Notes under the pieces: model-generated | What the model was told of the DNA's origin: nothing | What the model saw: the letters and a program-made list of their open reading frames with translations, nothing else | Databases searched by the model: none | Shown here: piece by piece, positions 7,600 through 48,601 of the stretch | Position numbering within the stretch: position 1 is the stretch's first letter | Layout: each line of letters begins with the position of its first letter | IMG/VR virus record: IMGVR_UViG_3300042914_002167 | DNA from: a virus | Strand: one strand, 5' to 3' | Length of the DNA stretch: 64,000 nucleotides | Program-made: the position numbers and the translations under genes

Positions 7600-7644
7600 T
7601 ATAAATAAACATGTAGCAACACCGAAAAGGAACTGCATGTTTAT
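7600..7644 (+). promoter_or_regulatory. Late promoter overlapping a 12-bp hairpin that sequesters the HNH start codon
   Basis: TATAAATA 7600-7607; ATAAACATGTAG (7605-7616) pairs with CTGCATGTTTAT (7633-7644). Confidence 0.7.
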
Positions 7645-8365
7645 AGATAACAAATACACCAAATGGTACATGTCAATTATAGAATCTGCCAAAACTAGAG
7701 AACGTTCGGACGAAGAATACTATGAGCGACATCATATTGTGCCAAAATCTTTGGGTGGTCGCAATAACAAAGAAAATCTTGTCAGCCTTACTGCCAGAGA
7801 ACACTTTATATGTCACATGCTTCTAGTCAAAATGGTAGAGATCGCATCGTATAAGAGAAGCATGTCGTATGCGCTAATAACAATGAGCGCGTCTAATGGC
7901 GGCGCGAGGCGGCGTAAGATTTCTGCGAGAGAATTTGAGTTGGCTAAAAAAATTGCCAAGCATCACATATCAGGCGTAAACAATGGATTTTACGGAAAGG
8001 GTAAATTGATTGCAGGAGACAAAAATCCAATGTACGGAAAACCATGCTACTATAACATGACAGAAAAAGAGAAACAGTCTTGGAAGAATGCAATATCAAA
8101 AGGCATTACTGGTGCAAAAAACCCATTCTACGGAAAAACTCACACAGAAACCACGAAAGCAAAACTTTCGAAGCACAGATCAATACCGATTAGAGTCACA
8201 TTTGATAACGGTAGCGTATTGGAGTTTGAGCAGTATAAGCACCTAGGAACGCACCTAGGGAAAAGCGGAGAGTTGGGCGCAAAGCTATGTAAAGATGAAA
8301 ATAAGCACCTATTGAGTAAGTACGGAATCGTTTCGATCATCAAAATAAAAGGAACAACATCATGA
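7637..8365 (+). mobile_element. Free-standing HNH homing endonuclease with NUMOD3-like repeats
   Basis: ERHHIVPKSLGGRNNKENLVSLTAREHFICHMLL; NPMYGK and NPFYGKTHTETTKAKLS. Confidence 0.9.
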
Positions 8366-38118: not shown

Positions 38119-38577
38119 ATGGCAAATATTGACTTGAGCAAGATGACTCTTCCGGAGATTATGAATCATCTCTCTTCGGATGTGTCTAATGATGATCGTC
38201 CTGGTGCTATGCAACAGGTTGCAAATTTTAGACCAGACTTCAAGGCTGTTATTCAGCTTGTGTTTGTGGAAGGTATTCAACTGGATCTACCTCCAGGAAT
38301 TCCACCATACAAGCCTCAGAACTTGCCAAACAATTGGGGATACAATCGGCTTCCCAAAGAGTTGAAGAAGATGCACTACTTCATCAAAGGTGCAGAGAAT
38401 AGCGTAAACAGGTTAAAGAAAGAAAGCATGTTCATTGAGATGCTAGAGAGTCTTTCTCCTGACGAAGCCAAACTCTTGATTCAAATCAAAGACAAGAAGT
38501 TAGAGTACAAAGGCATAACCAAGAGGTACGTCAAGAAGGCGTTTCCCGAATTTTTTCCCGGAGAAGCAGAAGAGTGA
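38119..38577 (+). CDS. Conserved T4-like hypothetical protein
   Basis: LPPGIPPY...KKESMFIEMLESLSPDEAKLL. Confidence 0.7.
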   Translation: MANIDLSKMTLPEIMNHLSSDVSNDDRPGAMQQVANFRPDFKAVIQLVFVEGIQLDLPPGIPPYKPQNLPNNWGYNRLPKELKKMHYFIKGAENSVNRLKKESMFIEMLESLSPDEAKLLIQIKDKKLEYKGITKRYVKKAFPEFFPGEAEE

Positions 38578-38796
38578 GATATGGCAAAAACTGATAAGAA
38601 GGGTTCTAGTGGCTATCGAGGCTTTCGCGAGTTCTATGAAGAAGAAAAAGAATTTCGCCCAAAGAAAAAGCGAGTAGACGAATCCGAAAAGGACAAGATG
38701 AAGTTTCGTGACAAGTTGAAACGCATTGATCCTAGAGACATAGACGAAGAAGAATTTGACGACTACTGAAACTTTTTTATTACACTGGAGTATATT

Positions 38797-38991
38797 ATGA
38801 ACAAGCCTACAATTGTTATGATCATCATCTTTGCAGTTTGTCTTGCAATCGTTTCGCCTCTCATATTCATCTGGAGTCTGAACACTCTGTTTGGATTGAG
38901 CATTGCATACGGTTTCTTTGAGTGGCTTGCTGCATTCATTCTTGTTGGTGTTGTGACAGGAAATGGCGTCAAGTTCAATTCAAAAAACTAA
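38797..38991 (+). CDS. Small membrane protein
   Basis: PLIFIWSLNTLF; two TMs; GGAG RBS. Confidence 0.6.
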   Translation: MNKPTIVMIIIFAVCLAIVSPLIFIWSLNTLFGLSIAYGFFEWLAAFILVGVVTGNGVKFNSKN

Positions 38992-39254
38992 AGCCTTTCG
39001 CCCACAGGATATTGACGGCAAGTTCAAGATATATGAGGGCTTGCGCCGAAGAAGCGTAGGGCAATGGAATTGGCATGTGAGGCGATTTGATTCTTCGCAC
39101 ATCTCTAGAGTGTTTGGTCAACTACACTACCTAGGAAGTCATGCACCAAGACCAATCACAAAGAAGTGGTACAGAGTAGAAAAAAAATTCTTTCAAAGGT
39201 ACAAAAAGTACCTCTAAGATGTATAAATAAAAGACAAGAAAATTGGAGTTACAA

Positions 39255-39362
39255 ATGGTTCCCTTTAGTTCATCAATCGTCAGAGTCTGGAATGAGTGTG
39301 CTTATAGCACAGACTCACGCCTACCTGCGATTCAGAAACACCATCTGAGGGTCCATCTGTAA
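39255..39362 (+). CDS. Putative attenuator leader peptide (35 aa)
   Basis: Late promoter TATAAATA 39222, GGAG RBS, MVPFSSSIVRVWNECAYSTDSRLPAIQKHHLRVHL*. Confidence 0.65.
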   Translation: MVPFSSSIVRVWNECAYSTDSRLPAIQKHHLRVHL

Positions 39363-39390
39363 GAAGTACACAAGAAGTACACCAACCAAA

Positions 39391-39425
39391 GGACCCTAGC
39401 GACGAAAGTTTCTAGGGTTTTTTGT
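39391..39425 (+). terminator. Intrinsic terminator with competing antiterminator
   Basis: GACCCTAG/CTAGGGTT stem plus T-run; AGGGTCC (39348-54) is complementary to GGACCCT (39391-97). Confidence 0.8.
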
Positions 39426-39459
39426 TTGTTGTATCAAAACAACAAGAGTGAAAAATCGC

Positions 39460-39830
39460 TTGACGGATCAGCATCAACCGATGTATACTGTGTCTGTTGA
39501 GTGAGAAATCGCTCAACGTCAGAGGAAGAAGAAAGACTGACTAAAACAGTCAAGAATTCAGAAGCCTCTTGACAAGATGCGGTAGACGATGTATACTGTA
39601 TCTGTTGAGTGAGAAATCGCTCGGTTCTTTAACAATCAGTGATTAGATCGAAGTGCTAGTGTAAATGAGCACACACCCCTAGTACTAGTCTGGAATCAAG
39701 GGTGGAGAACACGCGGCTCAAAAAGCAGATGCGAGTGCATTTCGATCTAATCATTGAAAGTTGTTGACAGTAAATCAGGTTACTGATACACTGTCTTCAT
39801 TGCTGAGAAATCGGCGATGTTCTTTAACAA
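39460..39830 (+). promoter_or_regulatory. Three tandem sigma70 promoters with boxB-like GAAA hairpins and boxA sites
   Basis: TTGACG/TATACT, TTGACA/TATACT, TTGACA/TACACT; (G/T)GTTCTTTAACAA at 39623 and 39818. Confidence 0.8.
39636..39757 (+). ncRNA. Long-stem structured RNA cassette A
   Basis: ~21-bp closing stem TCAGTGATTAGATCGAAGTGC/GCATTTCGATCTAATCATTGA. Confidence 0.6.
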
Positions 39831-39844
39831 TCAGAAGATCATTT

Positions 39845-39919
39845 GCTCCCGTCGTCTACTGGCTAGGACGCTGCCCTTTCAAGGCGGAAAAGACGGATCG
39901 AAACCGTTCGGGAGTACCA
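39845..39919 (+). tRNA. tRNA-Glu(TTC)
   Basis: Cloverleaf, CCA. Confidence 0.9.
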
Positions 39920-39996
39920 TATTGAAGCACACTATCTTGCTGGTGCATACAACGGGTTATGAGCGAGTCTTAATAATAGTGTGTTTCAATATGGTA
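39915..39996 (+). ncRNA. Long-stem cassette B (CCATATTGAA family)
   Basis: ACCATATTGAAGCACACTAT/ATAGTGTGTTTCAATATGGT. Confidence 0.65.
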
Positions 39997-40082
39997 AAGA
40001 ATTTGTATTTACGACTGTGTACTACTCCTAATTTATGGAGACTACAAGCAGCGCCGGAAAGCGTAACCGGCTAGAATATAAT

Positions 40083-40170
40083 GGGGGCTGTTCTCTGCGG
40101 GTGACTGTAAATCACTTGCCATAATATGCAGAGTGGCGGCAATTAGGTTCGATTCCTTCAGTCCCCACCA
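40083..40170 (+). tRNA. Atypical D-armless tRNA-Tyr(GTA)-like RNA
   Basis: Acceptor stem, CTGTAAA loop, T-loop, CCA; no D arm. Confidence 0.6.
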
Positions 40171-40177
40171 AGTTTTT

Positions 40178-40272
40178 GGGTGTATTGGCAGAAATAGGTT
40201 ATGCATCTCAGAGTACACTGTGATCAACAGTCGAAAGAGAATATTCGGGTGCGAATCCTGAAACATCCACCA
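40178..40272 (+). tRNA. tRNA-like RNA with expanded anticodon arm
   Basis: Acceptor, D and T arms and CCA present; 27-nt region in place of the anticodon loop. Confidence 0.55.
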
Positions 40273-40279
40273 AGTTTAT

Positions 40280-40354
40280 GGGCTGATAGTGATAATGGGA
40301 GCACAGGGGCTTTGCAAGCCTTTAGTCGGGGTTCGATCCCCCGTCGGTCCACCA
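40280..40354 (+). tRNA. tRNA-Ala(TGC)
   Basis: G3:U70, CCA. Confidence 0.9.
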
Positions 40355-40360
40355 AGTTAT

Positions 40361-40456
40361 GCTGTATTCCAAGTTACTGCGATCTCTCAGTTCAAAGCTG
40401 TCGCAGTGTAAAGAGAAGAACGATAGGTCAATCTTCTTGGATAAAATACAGCGCCA
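40361..40456 (+). ncRNA. CCA-ended non-cloverleaf RNA
   Basis: GCTGTATT/AATACAGC stem plus GCCA; internal hairpin and possible TCTCT/AGAGA pseudoknot. Confidence 0.5.
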
Positions 40457-40460
40457 ATAC

Positions 40461-40535
40461 ACCCGCATGGCTCAGTGGTAGAGCAGCGTCTTGATAAGGC
40501 GAAGGTCGGTGGTTCAATCCCACCTGTGGGTACCA
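40461..40535 (+). tRNA. tRNA-Ile(GAT)
   Basis: Cloverleaf, CCA. Confidence 0.9.
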
Positions 40536-40544
40536 AGACAAGAT

Positions 40545-40622
40545 GGGACTATAGTTTAACGGTTAAAACATCTCCCTTTTAAGGAGTAAGACTCTTCGGT
40601 TCGAATCCGAGTGGTCCCACCA
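40545..40622 (+). tRNA. tRNA-Lys(TTT)
   Basis: Cloverleaf, CCA. Confidence 0.88.
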
Positions 40623-40628
40623 AAATTT

Positions 40629-40668
40629 GCGACCGTAACTCAGTGGATAGAGTAGAAAACTTCATTTT
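40629..40668 (+). pseudogene. 5' half of a tRNA-Arg-like gene
   Basis: GCGACCGTAACTCAGTGGATAGAGTAGAAAACTTC breaks off at the anticodon. Confidence 0.6.
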
Positions 40669-40684
40669 TATATATAGAATAAAT

Positions 40685-40762
40685 GCGGCTGTAGCTCAGA
40701 GGAATTAGAGCATCGCTCTTCTAAAGCGAGGGTCGTTGGTTCGAATCCAACCAGCCGCACCA
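40685..40762 (+). tRNA. tRNA-Arg(TCT)
   Basis: Cloverleaf, CCA. Confidence 0.92.
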
Positions 40763-40781
40763 AATTCTAAAGGACAAAAAA

Positions 40782-41528
40782 ATGAAGAAAATATGCAATA
40801 AATGTAATAACGAATTTACAACTAGATCGGGCAACTATGATAAACATATAAATTCTTGCAATGGAATCTATATTAGATTTGAAAAATCTATCAAATGTAA
40901 ATACTGTAGTTTAGATTTTTCTGATCTGAAAACATCTGAAAGAGCAAATCACAGCAGATGGTGCGATAACAATCCAAAAAGAAAACAATACAATAAACAT
41001 CTTGAGAAAGCTAGGAATGAAATAACTCAAGAAAGTAGAAGAAAAGCTGCTGAGAGAATCAAACAAGCCCATGCAGAAGGCAAGTATGCTGGTGTTGCTA
41101 AGAAAGTGATAGATATTAGAAGAAAAAGAGGTTCGTTATTTCATTCAAATGAAACAAAGGATCTTATTAGACAAAAAGCACTTTCTTCGCCTCACCGAAG
41201 ATTGAAAAGAAAAATGATTGAGTATAATGGCGTTTGGTTAGACTCAACATGGGAATTAGAACTTGCTAAAAGATTAGATAGTTTAGGGATAAAGTGGATT
41301 AGACCAGATCCACTTCCTTGGTTCGATGAGTGTGGAGTCAAGCATAACTATTTTCCAGACTTCTATCTTATAGACTATGATATATTTCTTGATCCAAAAA
41401 ACGCCCATGCAAAAAAGGTGCAGTTGAAAAAAATTGATTGCTTACGGGTGCAGTACCAAAATATTGTTATAATAAACACCTTAGAAGAATGTAAGACATA
41501 CTTTCCACACAATAAAGAAAAGTGTTGA
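40782..41528 (+). mobile_element. Putative homing endonuclease (Zn fingers, NUMOD-like segment, PD-(D/E)xK domain)
   Basis: CxxC pairs; HSNETKDLIR; DSTWELE...YFPDFYL...LDPK; AT-rich. Confidence 0.75.
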
Positions 41529-41629
41529 CATCCGATGTGTTCTGATTTATAATGAACACATCAAGAAAAGCACGAAGACTGCCACCCCGGCAAGAGTGCG
41601 ACGAGGTTGTCGAATCTGCCTCGGTATGT

Positions 41630-41703
41630 GCCTCTTTAGTTTAATGGTAAAACTCCGCCCTTACAAGACGGTTACGGCAGTTCGATTCTGTCAAGAGGCA
41701 CCA
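41630..41703 (+). tRNA. tRNA-Val(TAC)
   Basis: Cloverleaf, CCA. Confidence 0.88.
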
Positions 41704-41895
41704 TTTAGTTTGTTGTTTCTGAAAATACCTGTGCAACCAGGTCAGTGCAATGCTAATACTGTGGACGGTACCTTTCAAACAGTACGCAGTTCTCTCTGAC
41801 GAAAAACGGAGTAGCTACCTAAAATAAGTCGGTGGGATGAAAAGCAAACGGCTACGGGTGAACGTAGTCTATAAAGAGACAACAAACTAAATGGT
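41700..41895 (+). ncRNA. Long-stem cassette C
   Basis: ACCATTTAGTTTGTTGTTTCT/AGAGACAACAAACTAAATGGT. Confidence 0.6.
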
Positions 41896-41903
41896 TTTAC
41901 AAT

Positions 41904-41983
41904 GGCCGACGGGACTGCATGGAGTGGTCGCTTGCCTGTCACGCAAGAGAGTCAGAGGGGATCGTTACCCCTGTCGGTCGCCA
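41904..41983 (+). tRNA. tRNA-Asp(GTC)
   Basis: CTGTCAC loop, CCA; atypical T-loop. Confidence 0.8.
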
Positions 41984-41994
41984 AGCAAAACAAT

Positions 41995-42068
41995 CGCGGG
42001 CGAGGAAGAGAGCAATCCGCTAGGCTCATAACCTAGAGATACCCTGTGCGACTCGGGGGTCCGCAACC
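41995..42068 (+). tRNA. tRNA-fMet(CAT)
   Basis: C1:A72 mismatch, CTCATAA loop. Confidence 0.75.
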
Positions 42069-42078
42069 CTTCAGTTTT

Positions 42079-42140
42079 AGAGTAGGTTCAGCAAACAATA
42101 ATACATTAGACTTGTAATCTAAACCGTAAAAAACTACTCT
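42079..42140 (+). ncRNA. CAGCAAA-family RNA 1
   Basis: AGAGTAG-GTTCAGCAAAC...AAA-CTACTCT. Confidence 0.65.
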
Positions 42141-42151
42141 GTTGTAACAAT

Positions 42152-42226
42152 AGGTCATAAACTTTGATGGTGAAGTCCACCCTCTTAAGGTGAGAGAACG
42201 CAGTTCGAACCTGCGATGACCTACCA
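42152..42226 (+). tRNA. tRNA-Lys(CTT)-like with irregular anticodon arm
   Basis: Acceptor and T arms, CCA; CACC-TCTTAA-GGTG. Confidence 0.65.
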
Positions 42227-42237
42227 AAAGTAAATTA

Positions 42238-42314
42238 GCCCCGGTGACGGAATAGGTATACGTGTTGGTCTTAGAAACCAAATTTTAGGAGTTCGAGTCT
42301 CCTCTGGGGCACCA
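42238..42314 (+). tRNA. tRNA-Leu(TAG), short variable loop
   Basis: Cloverleaf, CCA. Confidence 0.85.
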
Positions 42315-42779
42315 TATTGAAGCACATTGTTAGTTCACGGGTGTGGCAACCCTAAGCAGAAGCGTGCCAGCAGCCAATTGGGTCGATCTTCTGTCAGTGT
42401 GTTTCAATATGGCGAGTTAGGTAGTTCTAAAGTGAAGGGTGACCAGAGGTTTTGCAAGACCGAAGAGAGAGATAACCGAGGAGTGAAAATACGTCTAGAT
42501 CCGTACTACCAAGGACGTTCTTGCCGCCATATTGAAACACATTTTTCTGAAACGCCAGTCGCGCGCCATGCATAGTAGGTTAAGTGTGTTTCAATATGGT
42601 AAGTGCGTTATAGTGTGTAGTGGGTGGGATTAGTCCTTTCACGGCCCATGAAGCTCTACCCGCTCAGTGACGCAGCGGGACCATATTGAAGCATATCGGG
42701 TACGGGGCTTACCTGACTAGTAAGCGTGTGCGGGAGTTAGTCGCCCGTATCGCAGAACACCGGTATGTTTCAATATGGT
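42312..42779 (+). ncRNA. Tandem long-stem cassettes D (42312-42412), E (42527-42599), F (42680-42779) with structured spacers
   Basis: Each bounded by CCATATTGAA(G/A)CA.../...TGTTTCAATATGG. Confidence 0.7.
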
Positions 42780-42785
42780 AAATTT

Positions 42786-42862
42786 GCCCGGGTGATGGAA
42801 TAGGAATACATACCGAACTTAAAATTCGGGTTTTACGGGTTCGACCCCCGTCCCGGGTACCA
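42786..42862 (+). tRNA. tRNA-Leu(TAA), short variable loop
   Basis: Cloverleaf, CCA. Confidence 0.85.
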
Positions 42863-42875
42863 TTAAGGATAAACT

Positions 42876-43253
42876 ATGAAGCTTAAGAATTTTGAAATTG
42901 CCGAAGAATACCTATCATCTGTAAATGTTGTACAGGAGGCGGAGTATACCTTACAATCCCCTCTTGAATATGTACCAGAACATATAAGAGAGATGTTCAA
43001 GGATGGGAAGGCTAAGATGACTACGCAGTCCTGGGCTGACCATCCGGAGTTTGTTAAACTACGCCATCTACTAGAAGCCGAAGGGTACGTTAGAGTAGAA
43101 TGGGGTTGGTGGAATGGAGATAGGGTATTAAAAGCATTCACACTTAACGGTATTAGGTTTTATAAAGATGGCCAATTTCCGTGTGCGTCTGCACTCGGAA
43201 TACAGTATAAGATTGCAAAAGAAAACGGTAGAAAAACATTTAGTAAGTATTGA
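42876..43253 (+). CDS. Hypothetical protein inside the tRNA array
   Basis: AAGGA RBS; GWWNGDRVLK motif. Confidence 0.65.
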   Translation: MKLKNFEIAEEYLSSVNVVQEAEYTLQSPLEYVPEHIREMFKDGKAKMTTQSWADHPEFVKLRHLLEAEGYVRVEWGWWNGDRVLKAFTLNGIRFYKDGQFPCASALGIQYKIAKENGRKTFSKY

Positions 43254-43284
43254 GTTTTATTCCCCTTGACGCACGAGGTGTTAT

Positions 43285-43447
43285 GGTATCAAATAGTAAG
43301 ACCTATGTAAAATGTGTAACCAGCAGCCTAACTTTCAAGGTATTACCGATCTCTGTCATGCAATAAATGTGCTGTGGTGGCACTGCATTGATATGAGAGG
43401 GCATCTTATGCTCTTAAACAGATGAAAGTGTCTTACTATTTGATACT
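43285..43447 (+). ncRNA. Long-stem cassette G
   Basis: GGTATCAAATAGTAAGAC/GTCTTACTATTTGATACT. Confidence 0.6.
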
Positions 43448-43522
43448 GGTGATATGACGTAGATGGATGCGTAGCGGTTTCATAAGCCGACGAGGAAGGA
43501 TCGATACCTTCTATCACCACCA
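43448..43522 (+). tRNA. tRNA-Met/Ile2(CAT)
   Basis: TTCATAA loop, CCA. Confidence 0.8.
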
Positions 43523-43528
43523 AGATAA

Positions 43529-43607
43529 CCGAGATTAGGATAGTCTGGTTCATTCCGCCTGCTTTGGGAGCAGGAAACCGCTGGTTCGAATCCAGCATCT
43601 CGGACCA
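43529..43607 (+). tRNA. tRNA-Pro(TGG)
   Basis: Cloverleaf, CCA. Confidence 0.9.
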
Positions 43608-43612
43608 TTTTT

Positions 43613-43668
43613 AGACTGCATACAGCAAATACAAAAAACTTTATTGGACTAAAGCAAAAACGCAGTCT
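43613..43668 (+). ncRNA. CAGCAAA-family RNA 2
   Basis: AGACTGC-ATACAGCAAAT...AAAC-GCAGTCT. Confidence 0.65.
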
Positions 43669-43677
43669 GTTGTTTTT

Positions 43678-43752
43678 AGGGGATTAGCCAAGTGGTAAGG
43701 CATCTGATTTTGATTCAGACATCCGGTGGTTCGATCCCATCATCCTCTGCCA
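43678..43752 (+). tRNA. tRNA-Gln(TTG)
   Basis: Cloverleaf, CCA. Confidence 0.9.
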
Positions 43753-43804
43753 AAAAAAAGTTCTTGACAAGTGTTCAGAACGCATATATAATTTAGAAAT
43801 CAAT

Positions 43805-43883
43805 TCCGCAGAACCCGAGCATGGTGCATGGGCTGGACTGTTAATCCATGGTTAGCTGAGATCGTTACTCAGATGCGGAGCCA
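43805..43883 (+). tRNA. tRNA-Asn(GTT)
   Basis: CTGTTAA loop, CCA; atypical T-loop. Confidence 0.8.
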
Positions 43884-43891
43884 AGAATAAC

Positions 43892-43974
43892 GCTGGAGTC
43901 GCATAGCGGCGATTGCAACGGTTTTGTAAGCCGTCGGGAAACCCACGTGAGTTCGAGTCTCACCTCCAGCACCA
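43892..43974 (+). tRNA. tRNA-Thr(TGT) with a variable-arm hairpin
   Basis: TTTGTAA loop; GGG-AAA-CCC extra arm; CCA. Confidence 0.8.
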
Positions 43975-44035
43975 AGTAAAAGTCGCGATGACACTCCGCG
44001 TACAATAGGATAAGTAGTGTGTCAACGAATTCAAT

Positions 44036-44110
44036 GGGGGATTAGTATAGTTGGGAACACGATGCCCTTGCAAGGCATAGTCACCGGATCGTACCCGGTA
44101 TCCTCCACCA
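44036..44110 (+). tRNA. tRNA-Ala(TGC), second copy
   Basis: G3:U70, CCA. Confidence 0.8.
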
Positions 44111-44127
44111 AACAAACGGAGAGCAAT

Positions 44128-44325
44128 ATGAGCGACGGTGGCAAAGGATCAAAACCTAGACCATTCAGTGTAAGTCATGAAGAGTGGTCAAATCGGTGGG
44201 ATGCAATCTTTGGTAGGGATTTGAAAGATGATACGAAAGAACGCATACAGACAGTATTACCTAAAGAAGCTGAAGTTTCACCTGAAACTAGTTTTTTGGG
44301 CAATGAAGGGCGTGATTCTCAATAG
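44128..44325 (+). CDS. Small hypothetical protein
   Basis: MSDGGKGSKPRPFSV...WDAIFG; GGAG RBS. Confidence 0.6.
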   Translation: MSDGGKGSKPRPFSVSHEEWSNRWDAIFGRDLKDDTKERIQTVLPKEAEVSPETSFLGNEGRDSQ

Positions 44326-44338
44326 AAGGATCTAATGT

Positions 44339-44412
44339 TCCGGTGTAGTATAATGGCAGTGCTGCGGCTTCCAAATCCGCGAGTGGGAGTTCGATTCTCT
44401 CCACCGGAGCCA
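44339..44412 (+). tRNA. tRNA-Trp(CCA)
   Basis: TTCCAAA loop, G73, CCA. Confidence 0.8.
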
Positions 44413-44434
44413 AATCAAACGAAAGGAAACTATC

Positions 44435-44611
44435 ATGGAAACTAAGAAGTGGTATCTATCTAAGACAGTCTGGATCAACATCGTTGCGTTGGTTGGATTG
44501 ATCGTTCAAACACAAACTGGCTTTCTCTTGACGCCAGAAGTTCAAGCAATGGCTTTGACTCTTGTCAATCTTGCTGTTCGCACAGTGACAAAGCAGGAAC
44601 TTACTGTATGA
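44435..44611 (+). CDS. 58-aa two-TM holin-like protein (not in ORF track)
   Basis: METKKWYLSKTVWINIVALVGLIV...ALTLVNLAVRTVTKQELTV*; AAGGA RBS. Confidence 0.6.
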   Translation: METKKWYLSKTVWINIVALVGLIVQTQTGFLLTPEVQAMALTLVNLAVRTVTKQELTV

Positions 44612-44624
44612 AGTAATGAGTAAT

Positions 44625-44698
44625 GCGGGTGTCGTATAGTGGTAATACCTTAGCCTTCCAAGCTAAAGCGAGGAGTTCGATTCTCCTCACCCGCTCCA
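44625..44698 (+). tRNA. tRNA-Gly(TCC)
   Basis: Cloverleaf, CCA. Confidence 0.92.
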
Positions 44699-44720
44699 TA
44701 AAAACTGAGAGGAGTATATC

Positions 44721-45215
44721 GTGTATACCAGAATGAATGTTGACGCAGTGAAAGACTTCATCATGAATCAGTCTCCAGAGACAAAAGTCTACATTGGTGG
44801 AGACTCTGAGCGCATTATGATCAATGACGTTTGGTATGCCGATTATACTCTTGCTGTTGTTGTTCATATTGACGGAAAGCATGGCTGTAAAATCTTTGGT
44901 GATGTGCAGCGTGAAAAAGACTATGAGAAGAACAAGAACAGACCTCGAATGAGGCTCATGACGGAAGTCTACAAGATTTCCGAATTGTATCTCCAGCTTG
45001 CTGATGTCTTAGAAGACAGAGAAGTTGAAATTCACCTGGACATCAACCCAGATGAAAGATACGGAAGTTCTTGTGTAGTGCAAGAAGCAATCGGATACAT
45101 TCGCGGTATGTGTAATGTGGTGCCTATGGTAAAGCCAAGAGCATTCGCAGCATCTTACTGCGCAGACAGACTAAAAGAGATCATAAACATGCAGCAAAAC
45201 AAACTTGCAGCATGA
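44721..45215 (+). CDS. RNase H-like YkuK-family protein
   Basis: VYIGGDS...RLMTEV...EIHLDIN...KPRAFAASYCAD. Confidence 0.8.
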   Translation: MYTRMNVDAVKDFIMNQSPETKVYIGGDSERIMINDVWYADYTLAVVVHIDGKHGCKIFGDVQREKDYEKNKNRPRMRLMTEVYKISELYLQLADVLEDREVEIHLDINPDERYGSSCVVQEAIGYIRGMCNVVPMVKPRAFAASYCADRLKEIINMQQNKLAA

Positions 45216-45267
45216 CTTGACAGGAAGACAATTTCCTGATACACTATAGTCTGTAGATTGAAAACTT

Positions 45268-45474
45268 AGGGTGATTACAGCAAACAAATTCTAACGCTAA
45301 GGAGAGTCTTTAATCGGAGGACCCGCGTAAGCGGTTACAAAGTAGACTAGGATGCACAATTGCCGAATCTTGTGCTAGTGCCTACGACATAGGATGACGC
45401 AGATAATTCTGATAGTTTGGGTGGGGAGAAGCACCTTAGTTAGAACAACTGATCAAACACGAACCGAACACCCT
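45268..45474 (+). ncRNA. CAGCAAA-family RNA 3 (large insert)
   Basis: AGGGTG-ATTACAGCAAAC...AA-CACCCT; own promoter TTGACA(45217)-17-TACACT. Confidence 0.65.
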
Positions 45475-45486
45475 GCTATATTTACG

Positions 45487-45620
45487 AGAATAGGTTCAGC
45501 AAATCAAATGACTTAGCGTGTAACGCGCTTCCGGTATGTTGGGGAGAACCCCGGCAAGGTGAGTTTCGAGTTCTCTCCTTCGGTTCAATTCCGAAAGACT
45601 AAAAAGAAGAAAACTATTCT
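45487..45620 (+). ncRNA. CAGCAAA-family RNA 4 with T-arm mimic
   Basis: AGAATAG-GTTCAGCAAAT...TTCGG-TTCAATT-CCGAA...AAA-CTATTCT. Confidence 0.7.
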
Positions 45621-45641
45621 GTTGCATTGAAAGGAAATATC

Positions 45642-47069
45642 ATGAACACTTTTGTTGACGCTGTTATGAATCAAGAAGCCCGCACTGAGAATGGAATGAA
45701 GGCGCGCAAGTCTACTTCCAATGCATGTGTGGATCTGTTTTTCAAGATCGGCGCATCTCGCGGCAAGAGCATCCTGAAGGAGTTCACGGCTGCATACGTT
45801 GAGAACAAGGACCTTGCACTGCGCATTGCACAGTGGGCGCGTGATGCGCGTGGTGGTTCTGGTGAGCGCCAGGTGTTTCGCGACATCTTGGCATATCTGG
45901 AAAAGAATGATCAAGAATCCGCAAAGGCTCTTTTGCCTAAGGTGCCTACTCTTGGGCGTTGGGATGACATCTTTGTCTTCCAAACTTCCGAGTTGAAGTC
46001 TGCTGCATACAGTATGCTTGGTGATGCACTGCGCGAGAAGAATGGTTTGGCTGCTAAGTGGACTCCTCGCCAAGGTCCAATCGCAGTTGAGATCCGCAAG
46101 TTCTTCGGCATGTCTCCGAAGTTCTATCGGAAGTCTCTTGTTGAGATGACTAAGGTCGTTGAGCAACAAATGTGTGCTAAGGAATGGGATGAGATCAACT
46201 TCTCTCATGTTCCTTCTGTTGCACATGCGCGATACAAGAAGGCTTTTGGGCGTAACACTCCTAAGTACGCTGAGTACGTGACTTCCCTTGTTAAGGGTGA
46301 CAACCCCGAAGTCAAGGTGAATGCAGGTGCAGTGTATCCTTACGATGTGTTGAAGGGTGCGATCTCTCCTTACAATAGAGTTCAGTTTGACAAGACTGGG
46401 CTTGATCTGATGACTAAGCAGTGGGAAGCACTGGAGAACTTCATCGGTGATGCAAGCGTGTTGCCTCTGGTTGACGTTAGCGGATCTATGACTATCCCTG
46501 TGGGTGGTCATGGTTCTAAGACTCAGTTGAATTGTCTGGAAGTTGCAGTCTCTTTGGGATTGTACTGTGCAGACAAGAACAAGGGTAAGTTCAAGGACAC
46601 GTTCTTGACTTTCTCTGAGCATCCAGAACTGATGCATCTGAAGGGCAACATCGTTCAGAAGATTGAGCAGATGAATTCCTCAGATTGGGGAATGAATACT
46701 GATCTGGTTTCAGCAATGAACCTGATCCTGATGACTGCTGTGAAGGGCAATGTTCCTCAAGAGGAAATGCCTGGAATGCTTCTGATCATGTCCGATATGC
46801 AGTTTGATCGATGCGCAAGTTTTGATGACTCCGCTATGGAGACAATCAAGCGCAAGTTCACTCAGAACGGATATGAAGTGCCTGCGATTGTGTTCTGGAA
46901 TATCAACTCAAAGGACAATGTTCCTGCGAAGTCTAATCAGAGCAAGGTTGCGATGGTATCTGGTTTCAGCCCAGCTATCATGAAGTCTGTTCTGAGTGCT
47001 GACACTGAAAAGTTCACACCAGAAGGCATCATGTTGAACACTGTGATGGTACCAAGGTACGATCTGTAA
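45642..47069 (+). CDS. DUF2828-family TROVE/Ro60-like protein with C-terminal vWA domain
   Basis: RTENG, ARDARGGSGER, GRWDD, AAKWTPR, VDVSGSM (MIDAS), SDMQFD, IVFWN, VSGFSP. Confidence 0.85.
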   Translation: MNTFVDAVMNQEARTENGMKARKSTSNACVDLFFKIGASRGKSILKEFTAAYVENKDLALRIAQWARDARGGSGERQVFRDILAYLEKNDQESAKALLPKVPTLGRWDDIFVFQTSELKSAAYSMLGDALREKNGLAAKWTPRQGPIAVEIRKFFGMSPKFYRKSLVEMTKVVEQQMCAKEWDEINFSHVPSVAHARYKKAFGRNTPKYAEYVTSLVKGDNPEVKVNAGAVYPYDVLKGAISPYNRVQFDKTGLDLMTKQWEALENFIGDASVLPLVDVSGSMTIPVGGHGSKTQLNCLEVAVSLGLYCADKNKGKFKDTFLTFSEHPELMHLKGNIVQKIEQMNSSDWGMNTDLVSAMNLILMTAVKGNVPQEEMPGMLLIMSDMQFDRCASFDDSAMETIKRKFTQNGYEVPAIVFWNINSKDNVPAKSNQSKVAMVSGFSPAIMKSVLSADTEKFTPEGIMLNTVMVPRYDL

Positions 47070-47701
47070 TGATCAAGACAGATGTTGAAGCGTGGCAGAA
47101 ATACCCGTTTCATAGAAGTTGGTTCAATAAATTGTGGGTAGCCGATACGTTCGGCTATCTATGTGGTCCCAATGCGGTGCCTGTGCCCGTAGAGGATAAC
47201 TACATCGTAAAGCCAATTTACAACTTACATGGAATGGGAGCAGGAGCCAAGATTAAGCATCTTCGCCCAGAAGATGTTGATCATGTTCCTCCTGGATATT
47301 TCTGGTGCGAAAGATTCATCGGTGATCATTACTCCATTGAACTTACATGGCGTAATGGTCATTGGAATGTAGTCTCTGTCTTTCAGGGATTCCATTCCAA
47401 TGAGCAAGAGTTGTTCAGATTTGTCAAATGGAAAAGAGTCTCACCTGAGATTCATCTTCCTAAGAAACTTGATGAACTGTGGGACTGTGGATCTATCAAT
47501 GTTGAAATGATAGACAACAAGATCATTGAAGTTCATCTCAGAGGTACTCCTGATCCAGTTGAGTACGATGAGTTGATACCAATTTGGAATGATACACCGG
47601 AATGTGTTGTCAACGAACTAAAAACCATGTATAATTTCATACATAGTGAAGACAAAGTTCTAAATTCGGAATTCTACAGAGTAGGATTCTTTGTAAAGTA
47701 A
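47069..47701 (+). CDS. ATP-grasp-like conserved phage protein
   Basis: IVKPIYNLHGMGAGA; FWCERFIGDHYS; INVEMI...IEVHLR. Confidence 0.6.
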   Translation: MIKTDVEAWQKYPFHRSWFNKLWVADTFGYLCGPNAVPVPVEDNYIVKPIYNLHGMGAGAKIKHLRPEDVDHVPPGYFWCERFIGDHYSIELTWRNGHWNVVSVFQGFHSNEQELFRFVKWKRVSPEIHLPKKLDELWDCGSINVEMIDNKIIEVHLRGTPDPVEYDELIPIWNDTPECVVNELKTMYNFIHSEDKVLNSEFYRVGFFVK

Positions 47702-47775
47702 GCGGGATTAGTTTATTGGTAAAACGAAACCTTGCCAAGGTTTAGTGACCAGTTCGATTCTGGTATCCCGCTCCA
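47702..47775 (+). tRNA. tRNA-Gly(GCC)
   Basis: Cloverleaf, CCA. Confidence 0.9.
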
Positions 47776-47783
47776 GTAACAAT

Positions 47784-47858
47784 GGTGGCTATGGTGTAAT
47801 GGAAGCACTCGACTCTGTGAAAGTCGTAGCCTGAGGTCGGTACTCAGTAGTCACCCCA
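47784..47858 (+). tRNA. tRNA-His(GTG)
   Basis: G-1, CTGTGAA loop, CCA. Confidence 0.8.
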
Positions 47859-47865
47859 ATTTAAT

Positions 47866-47941
47866 GCTGCTTTAGCTGATGTGGTCATAGCGGAGGCCTG
47901 AAGAGCCTTGGAACGTGGTTCGATCCCACGAGGCAGCACCA
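47866..47941 (+). tRNA. tRNA-Phe(GAA)
   Basis: Cloverleaf, CCA. Confidence 0.88.
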
Positions 47942-47949
47942 GAACAAAC

Positions 47950-48025
47950 ACGCCCTTGGTGAAACTGGAGATCACATAAGTCTACGAAATTTAAGTTGGG
48001 GATTCGAATTCCTCAGGGCGTACCA
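47950..48025 (+). tRNA. tRNA-Arg(ACG)
   Basis: CTACGAA loop, CCA. Confidence 0.8.
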
Positions 48026-48030
48026 TTATT

Positions 48031-48122
48031 GGCGCTGTGGCAGAGTCCGGTTTATTGCAGCAGTCTTGAAAACTGCCGATCCCGAAAGGGGTCCGTGAGT
48101 TCGAATCTCACCGGCGCCGCCA
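48031..48122 (+). tRNA. tRNA-Ser(TGA)
   Basis: Long variable arm, CCA. Confidence 0.92.
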
Positions 48123-48130
48123 GTAAGTAT

Positions 48131-48218
48131 AGTGAGTTGGATGAGTGGCTTAAATCGGCACCCTGCTAAGGTGTTGTTCGTAGAAATACGGACCGTGGGT
48201 TCGAATCCCACACTCACT
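48131..48218 (+). tRNA. tRNA-Ser(GCT)
   Basis: Long variable arm; CCA not fully encoded. Confidence 0.9.
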
Positions 48219-48263
48219 GCCGTCATTGACAAAGAAATGATCTTCTGATAAAATGTTTATGTT

Positions 48264-48340
48264 GCCCCGGTGATGGAACCGGTATACGTGTCGGATTCAA
48301 AATCCGAATTTTGAGGGTTCGAATCCCTCCTGGGGCACCA
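48264..48340 (+). tRNA. tRNA-Leu(CAA), short variable loop
   Basis: Cloverleaf, CCA. Confidence 0.85.
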
Positions 48341-48345
48341 GATGT

Positions 48346-48422
48346 GGGCTGATAGCTTAGTGTCCTAAAGCAGCGTTCTCATAAAGCGTTGATCCTGGGT
48401 TAGAATCCCAGTCAGCCTACCA
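48346..48422 (+). tRNA. tRNA-Ile2/Met(CAT)
   Basis: CTCATAA loop, CCA. Confidence 0.8.
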
Positions 48423-48424
48423 AC

Positions 48425-48521
48425 ACCTCTATAGTTTAATGGCAGAACACCCGGCTTATAATCGGTTAAATGGCTCCGCGACGGGGGCGTAGTGTAGGTT
48501 CGAATCCTACTAGAGGTACCA
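48425..48521 (+). tRNA. tRNA-Ile(TAT) with very long variable region
   Basis: CTTATAA loop; ~27-nt variable region; CCA. Confidence 0.7.
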
Positions 48522-48523
48522 AT

Positions 48524-48601
48524 GCACCGGTGGCAGAGTGGTCAAATGCAACGGATTGCAAATCCGTAAAGTCGTCAGTTCAAATCTGACCCGGTGCTCC
48601 A
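48524..48601 (+). tRNA. tRNA-Cys(GCA)
   Basis: U73, CCA. Confidence 0.92.

Follow-up and report, generated by a model that had tools for sequence, protein, structure and literature searches.

The window analysed here, 64,000 nucleotides (nt) of the IMG/VR virus record IMGVR_UViG_3300042914_002167, carries an array of transfer RNA (tRNA) genes, and before this array, on the same strand, lies a short element that is probably a ribosome-mediated transcription attenuator, that is, one governed by a leader peptide, whose leader appears to be built for maximal amino-acid diversity. Comparison with its relatives indicates that the element is real, conserved and strongly non-random. Its anatomy, the amino-acid diversity of its leader, the alternative pairings of its RNA with their geometry and covariation, and its position before the array can all be read directly from the sequences and from their comparison. 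The window comes from a T4-like lake-water phage and represents its replication module, with genes for DNA polymerase, NrdA and RNase H; many of the relatives that carry the element are uncultured.

Read along the + strand, the element starts with a predicted T4-type late promoter motif, TATAAATA (39222-39229), located 25 nt before the ATG of the leader; by chance, 1.1 copies of this motif would be expected in the window, which has five, each of them on the + strand. It is followed by a Shine-Dalgarno (SD) sequence, GGAG (39245-39248), 6 nt ahead of the ATG at 39255, and by an open reading frame (ORF) of 35 codons (39255-39362, with its TAA at 39360-39362). The ORF encodes 19 kinds of amino acids and no Gly, contains the core SRLPAI that is conserved among relatives, and uses 30 different codons; all 19 kinds have already appeared within the first 29 codons. 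The next component is an intrinsic terminator (39388-39423, +) with a stem of 12 pairs, a GAAA loop and six T, whose stability is calculated to be -17.3 kcal/mol. Its 5′ arm (39391-39403) and 3′ arm (39408-39417), both on the + strand, are called here regions 3 and 4, according to the nomenclature of trp-type attenuators. Five nt before the stop codon ends the heptamer AGGGTCC (region 2, 39348-39354, +), the upstream strand of the antiterminator, which is the exact reverse complement of GGACCCT (39391-39397) at the base of the terminator 5′ arm; the probability of finding a 7-nt complement to the terminator arm within the last 22 nt of the ORF is 0.004 in the window. The original prediction, made from the letters of the window alone, had listed the late promoter motif, the GGAG, the 35-codon ORF, the 19 kinds of residues in 29 codons with Gly alone missing, the variety of codons and the complementarity of the two heptamers, and every one of these items is present as described. 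Thus, the element has several features that characterize the attenuator class: a short ORF led by a ribosome-binding site on the same strand, an intrinsic terminator in between, and an antiterminator that competes for the 5′ arm of the latter.

Relatives were collected from IMG/VR loci anchored on RNase H, from a Logan contig reached via an 84-residue gene adjoining the element, and from pattern scans for the terminator hairpin, and they were assigned to six groups by nhmmer and an architecture scan. Among the 31 anchored loci in which the first tRNA is visible, 24 have a leader ORF and a terminator 41-140 nt upstream of that tRNA, and the same unit of ORF and terminator is found in L085, L086, L088, L089 and L091. 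Group A consists of the window and L085, group B of L086, L088, L089 and L091, group D of L062, L065/66 and L071-73, group E of ten loci (L035 and L037, for instance), and group F of L070, while the array of the eight loci of group G (such as L021, L031 and L045) is situated behind a different gene. A peptide-alignment search for related loci and a DNA pattern scan with the degenerate core gave no new contigs. The element is widespread in abundant lake phages. It had been anticipated that relatives would have leaders of divergent sequence with preserved amino-acid diversity and with a covarying pairing, and this is the case across the six groups, with leaders of 34-38 codons, 18-20 kinds of residues and complements of 6-10 nt.

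Several signs suggest that the ORF is translated. From ATG to stop codon, the frame is intact in all 17 distinct peptide variants (34-38 codons) despite insertions and deletions, even though peptide identity between groups goes down to about 23%. An SD site stands ahead of the ATG in groups A, D, E and F (of the AGGAAG type in the last three); the ATG of group G is located 1 nt past the stop codon of the preceding gene, an arrangement of stop-start coupling. Within groups, 21 of the 42 variable positions are third codon positions, and the variable codons comprise 13 with synonymous changes only and 19 with residue changes. This pattern of variation indicates a mild constraint at the protein level, as would be expected where the exact sequence of the leader matters little. 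Near-invariance is confined to the core SR[LT]PAI (altered in L071), which coincides with the 3′ strand of a hairpin in the middle of the ORF. Longer in-frame versions, of 45-50 residues, are a property of groups B, D, E and F and are missing from A and G; thus, the conserved unit is the short ORF led by the SD sequence. These longer forms arise from in-frame upstream ATGs, and one of them (P0002) is the sole form present in public protein sets.

How does the RNA of this element fold? In all groups, the terminator has 11-13 pairs followed by 5-6 T, with -17 to -23 kcal/mol, and lies 25-35 nt past the stop codon; it is identical in A and B, and the stem of D-G differs with compensatory pairs. 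Exact complements between the tail of the ORF and the terminator are also found in every group, with 7 nt in A (AGGGTCC/GGACCCT), 6 nt in B (GGGTCC/GGACCC), 8 nt in D (TGGGGGTC/GACCCCCA), 7 nt in E (AGGGGGC/GCCCCCT), and 9 and 10 nt in F and G, respectively, both built on GGGGGCTT/AAGCCCCC. They invariably end 3-6 nt before the stop codon and enclose loops of 33-40 nt, and shuffling gives probabilities from 0.004 to <0.0002 for such complements in four groups. When the nascent RNA is folded up to the end of region 3, the helix between regions 2 and 3 appears in the minimum free energy (MFE) structure in six of six groups, enclosing a spacer hairpin (GTAC...GTAC, 39366-39380, + in the window) that has a counterpart of different sequence in all six. 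If a ribosome is placed at codon 15 as a stalled one, the antiterminator state lies 0-6 kcal/mol above the terminator state, and if it is placed at the stop codon, the terminator is the sole possible fold. In untranslated RNA, the start codon and the bases that follow it (region 1, 39255-39264, +) pair with region 2 in MFE folds; this 1:2 helix is predicted in groups A-F, with three compensatory pairs in D/E/F, and is not evident in G. Another strong hairpin is formed in the middle of the ORF (39275-39332, + in the window) and ends 10-16 nt before region 2 in every group, with compensatory differences between A and B seen by eye; its 3′ strand is the conserved core, and it is a candidate pause hairpin for RNA polymerase. 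The folding z-score of the element is -5.1. Taken together, the 1:2, 2:3 and 3:4 pairings would make up, as judged from predicted folds, a complete trp-type arrangement. It is to be noted that a second small hairpin, TTGTTG...CAACAA (39424-39447, +), comes right after the T-run of the terminator and that its position is conserved in all the groups with a leader.

The pairing between regions 2 and 3 has been maintained while its sequence changed. Cognate 2:3 duplexes have -13 to -23 kcal/mol, against -6 to -9 kcal/mol when tails of A/B are combined with arms of E/F/G or the reverse. Pairs were counted on end-anchored segments, because wide MAFFT alignments put the G-runs out of register and were unusable for this purpose. 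In the end-anchored alignment, 96.8% of the cells are paired, two positions adjoining the G-run have changed from C:G to U:A on both sides, and the lengths of the G-run in the ORF, of the C-run and of the G-run in the 3′ arm co-vary (3 vs 5). The covariation score for 2:3 is 0.278 vs 0.134, a value reached in none of 500 shuffles and above all slid controls.

The most unusual property of the leader is its composition. In the window alone, 19 or more kinds in 35 residues have a probability of 0.02-0.03 under proteome and codon nulls and of 0.08 under a uniform null, and about 1.2% of six-frame ORFs reach the diversity of this leader, so that several such ORFs are expected per window. The evidence from the window alone is thus suggestive only, and it is the relatives that lend it significance. 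All 20 of 20 kinds occur within 34-37 residues in groups B, D, E and F; there are 19 kinds in group A and 18-20 in group G. For a single sequence, 20 of 20 kinds has a probability of 0.001-0.005 (0.007-0.018 under the uniform null). Common descent was allowed for by fixing the residues shared with the nearest group and redrawing the remainder, which gave conditional probabilities of 0.007 for B given A, 0.001 for D given B, 0.002 for E given D, 0.11 for F given E, and 0.036 for G (19 kinds) given E. Multiplied together, these values give about 5e-11; with the uniform null, the result is about 2e-8. Moreover, the rare residues W, C, H, K and F occupy different positions in different groups, which indicates that residues have turned over under selection for completeness. 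Nonsynonymous changes were also compared with residues that occur only once, and the events are too few to show avoidance. Diversity is retained if one considers merely the stall window, namely the codons at which a ribosome stalled with that codon in the A-site leaves region 2 unpaired: there are 19 kinds in 29 codons in group A (P = 0.003), 20 in 28 in B (P = 5e-5), 19 in 29 in E (P = 0.003) and 20 in 29 in F (P = 1e-4).

Leader translation, its coupling to transcription, pausing of the polymerase, the regulatory outcome and the physiological trigger can be inferred from this anatomy as follows. Transcription would begin at the late promoter (39222) or arrive as read-through from the upstream operon, and ribosomes would translate the leader of 35 codons. 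If translation goes smoothly, the ribosome would sit at the stop codon and cover region 2 (39348-39354) while the polymerase makes regions 3 and 4; the terminator would form, and transcription would stop at 39423. If the ribosome is delayed at any codon up to about the 29th, region 2 would be free to pair with 39391-39397, the terminator would remain incomplete, and the polymerase would proceed into the tRNA genes. If the RNA is not translated at all, region 1 would hold region 2, and again the terminator would form. As the leader samples 19-20 kinds of amino acids, the array would be transcribed more whenever almost any species of tRNA runs short or is cleaved, and a well-supplied tRNA pool would shut this transcription off, which would constitute negative feedback. 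It had been claimed that stalling at any codon is sensed; this may apply to codons up to about 29, but those within about three codons of region 2 cannot act as sensors. Could the device be, then, a general sensor of the tRNA pool, which detects depletion or cleavage of any host tRNA, by anticodon nucleases or further defences directed at tRNAs, for example, and answers late in infection with a nearly complete set of phage tRNAs? This is conceivable, and we hold it tentatively, at somewhat short of an even chance.

In some of the loci, the switch may be the way into the array. Strong sigma70-like promoters are located after the terminator in the window and in most groups, and early transcription of the array can therefore bypass the switch. 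In the window, three such promoters (39460-39489, 39569-39597 and 39764-39792, +; conserved in L002 and L009) stand in the 420 nt between the terminator and the first tRNA, as was foreseen in the caveat that downstream sigma70 promoters might circumvent the attenuator. By contrast, L031, L045, L057 and L076 have no strong promoter from the terminator to the first tRNA, the segment being missing, and in L070 the promoter is reduced to a -10 element; in these loci, read-through is the only evident route into the array. As for the entry upstream, the late promoter motif is identical in L085, and it is perfect in the window's own group only: D and E match it at 6-7 of 8 positions at equal distance, and G has none.

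A number of observations weigh against an attenuator that reads amino-acid diversity. In group D the stall window holds just 18 kinds (30 codons, P = 0.03), and in group G just 17 (30 codons, P = 0.13); Val in D, and Val, Gly and Ala in G, are encoded solely in or near region 2, where a stalled ribosome masks region 2. Leader codons are not enriched for those read by phage tRNAs, exact cognates accounting for 40% of them vs 53% in phage genes, so that the leader would monitor amino acids across the entire pool. The array includes two tRNA-Gly genes, but the leader of the window has no Gly; conversely, this leader has Asn, and ARAGORN and Rfam found no tRNA-Asn in the array. All the covariation comes from a single phage clade and from few independent events. 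The leader is missing from seven of the 31 loci (L002-L007 and L009), close relatives that keep the terminator and the array, and is thus frequent but dispensable. In L002, the closest relative with data, a gene for a small membrane protein runs straight into a variant of the same hairpin, and the 401 nt equivalent to 38993-39393, with the 84-residue gene, the late promoter and the leader, are lacking. The three bypass promoters of the window can limit the attenuator to a part of array transcription. Finally, a near-consensus sigma70-like promoter of group B, TTTACA-17-TATAAT, overlaps the leader ATG with its -10 box, and transcription from it would start after the ATG.

Some of these observations would fit well with the same RNA switch doing something simpler, namely reporting only the general status of translation, in other words whether the polymerase has a ribosome behind it. 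It would insulate the strongly promoted array from the upstream operon, or exert polarity between the two, and would be blind to individual tRNA species, so that the composition of the leader is irrelevant. Bypass promoters directly downstream in most groups, a dispensable leader, codons unmatched to the phage tRNAs, and several kinds of residues placed where stalling cannot be sensed are all in its favor. However, such a general coupling device would not need 18-20 kinds of amino acids in 34-38 residues, and it leaves this composition unexplained in group after group, with W, C, H, K and F shifting their positions; we regard it as unlikely. The last observation, that of the promoter in group B, would rather suit a structured non-coding RNA, a small RNA or a 3′-end element with its own promoter and ended by the terminator, in which the reading frame is a coincidence. 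The folding z-score given above, the nucleotide identity of 97% to L085 over the leader element against 70-85% in the flanking genes, and the conservation of the sequence after the stop codon point in the same direction, but a frame kept open through indels in all 17 variants, the SD sites and the bias of variation to third positions are not expected from it, the amino-acid composition cannot arise from constraints on RNA, and Rfam has no match. A non-coding RNA is accordingly very unlikely.

Another way to look at the ORF is to take it as the last gene of the upstream operon, encoding a small functional peptide and followed by an ordinary terminator, with the complementarity being incidental or serving mRNA stability. 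Conservation of the ORF with its core SR[LT]PAI, and synonymous changes inside the core, are what such a gene should show. Outside these six residues, however, identity falls to about 23% and nonsynonymous change is frequent, the core itself changes in L071 and is at the same time the 3′ strand of the mid-ORF hairpin, and the peptide matches no family in Pfam, PHROGs or large protein libraries; nor would a functional peptide account for the covarying 2:3 pairing of fixed geometry or for a composition of all 20 kinds. We consider a peptide gene quite improbable. Lastly, looking at the window only, one could still propose a chance ORF beside the terminator of the upstream operon, given the probability of 0.02-0.03 for its diversity and about 1% of small ORFs that reach it; at the level of the family, this is refuted by the family-wide statistics and the covariation, and hardly any weight is left for it. 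An attenuator with a leader of maximal diversity, for all the observations against it, is thus the interpretation that we favor.

It may be helpful to place this predicted attenuator beside known ones. In the trp model, region 2 is covered by the ribosome at the stop codon and control is kinetic. With trp-type attenuators (trpL, hisL, pheL and leuL) the present element has in common a short ORF led by an SD sequence, a terminator, and predicted, mutually exclusive 1:2/2:3/3:4 pairings; a ribosome that has reached the stop codon would likewise hide region 2, and control would be kinetic here, too, the terminator being more stable than the antiterminator by a few kcal/mol. It differs from them in that region 1 is the start-codon region itself, and in that it is an element of a phage, located behind a late-type promoter. 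Unlike classical leaders (trpL, hisL, pheL, leuL, thrL and ilvL), its leader has no runs of codons and contains 19-20 kinds of amino acids, and what lies downstream are tRNAs, not biosynthetic enzymes. Multivalent leaders are known: that of ilvGMEDA senses Ile, Leu and Val, and the thr leader senses Thr and Ile, via codons spread along the ORF. These leaders deal with two or three related amino acids by many repeated codons, whereas here nearly all 20 kinds occur, mostly once or twice. The pheST operon, with its Phe-specific leader pheM, and T-boxes respond to the charging of tRNA by regulating genes of the translation machinery, a T-box binding one uncharged tRNA directly, with no involvement of translation. 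In the present case, unlike pheST and T-boxes, the target is the tRNA genes themselves, and there is no Rfam match to a T-box. A ribosome stalled on a leader also refolds downstream RNA in the cases of ermC, cat and msrD (for a discussion of examples, see PMC6851288 and PMC10314930). Those stalls depend on a drug and on the nascent peptide, while here any hungry codon is proposed to suffice, and no arrest motif is known in the leader. A leader based on diversity would be a new form of leader-peptide attenuation, the mechanism itself being a known one. Full-text searches of the literature revealed no leader for all amino acids, no attenuation of a tRNA operon and no attenuator of phage tRNA genes, and a key paper on phage tRNAs does not mention such control.

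The array that is presumed to be the regulated target extends from 39845 to 48601 (+). ARAGORN with default settings finds 26 tRNAs in it. Rfam and relaxed ARAGORN contribute three more that the default settings missed: a tRNA-Met(CAT) at 43448-43522 (+; 46.5 bits with Rfam), a Tyr-like gene (40082-40170, +) whose anticodon is GTA and whose D region is odd, and a weak hit with a CAT anticodon (41996-42065, +). By the three approaches combined, the array has about 27-29 genes and serves about 19 amino acids. About 31 tRNA genes had been announced directly behind the terminator; the array is there, but the count is lower, and the distance given above separates the first tRNA from the terminator. 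A boxA-like sequence, GTTCTTTAACAA, follows the array promoters (39625-39636 and 39819-39830, +; about 11615-11630 in L045), is conserved clade-wide, and is kept even where relatives lack the promoter segment. A metatranscriptome contig of a relative (run X23) joins 39639 to 39844 via 10 other letters, from which it follows that there are relatives without the 204-nt long-stem cassette between the second promoter and tRNA-Glu. The same run does not cover 39222-39425 and so counts neither for nor against expression of the leader. Homing-endonuclease-like genes are present at 7637-8365 and 40782-41528 (both +), the second inside the tRNA array, and the first is preceded by a copy of TATAAATA at 7600.

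Some neighbors of the leader and the outcome of database searches should also be recorded. The 84-residue basic ORF at 38963-39217 (+) is lineage-specific but a real gene. Its counterpart in L085 is 64% identical, and three further phage contigs of unrelated context have versions with about 40% identity and a shared motif around RVFGQLHYL...HAP...KKW; the gene is missing from L002 and from all the other groups with a leader. The sequence ATATATAG is located some 45 nt ahead of the leader ATG in groups B, D, E and F (L086 2606-2660; L035 4295-4340; L065 6041-6090) and is also found upstream of the membrane-protein gene in L003-L006; it was rejected as a general promoter motif, there being one occurrence per locus. 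Neither Pfam nor PHROGs has a family for the leader or for its 84-residue neighbor, and Rfam gives no family except tRNA for 38500-40400 at E <= 1, the leader region not being tRNA-like. Peptide and profile searches of libraries of 5.8 billion and 1.8 billion proteins retrieved as the only called protein P0002, the long form of the L070 ORF; the other matches were repeat proteins and were discarded, as was an exact match to 18 letters of the leader in the viral contig L084, which is inside an unrelated gene and due to chance.

As to the phage itself, the nearest named relative of its RNase H is from a Kyanoviridae phage, with 52% identity. Cultured phages gave no nucleotide match to 38600-39850 and nothing credible by tblastn, and Methylophilales phage Melnitz, the closest relative in culture, carries a single tRNA and lacks a leader. 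The same strain is present in lake metagenomes from at least five studies, and the leader is identical to the letter in both of the metagenome runs whose contigs span it.

It has long been asked why phages carry tRNA genes, and to our knowledge the regulation of these genes is essentially unstudied. If the reading proposed here is true, this would be the first attenuator described for tRNA genes, and the first that senses the whole tRNA pool rather than one amino acid, with the textbook design inverted in that diversity replaces repetition. It would be a compact natural sensor of translational capacity, whose predictions are testable in a heterologous host. Phage tRNAs have been linked to escape from host defences that cleave tRNAs (PMC10264068; PMC11464382). 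If the leader does sense the pool, the phage would possess in this element an inducible and self-limiting circuit, serving both counter-defence and supply.

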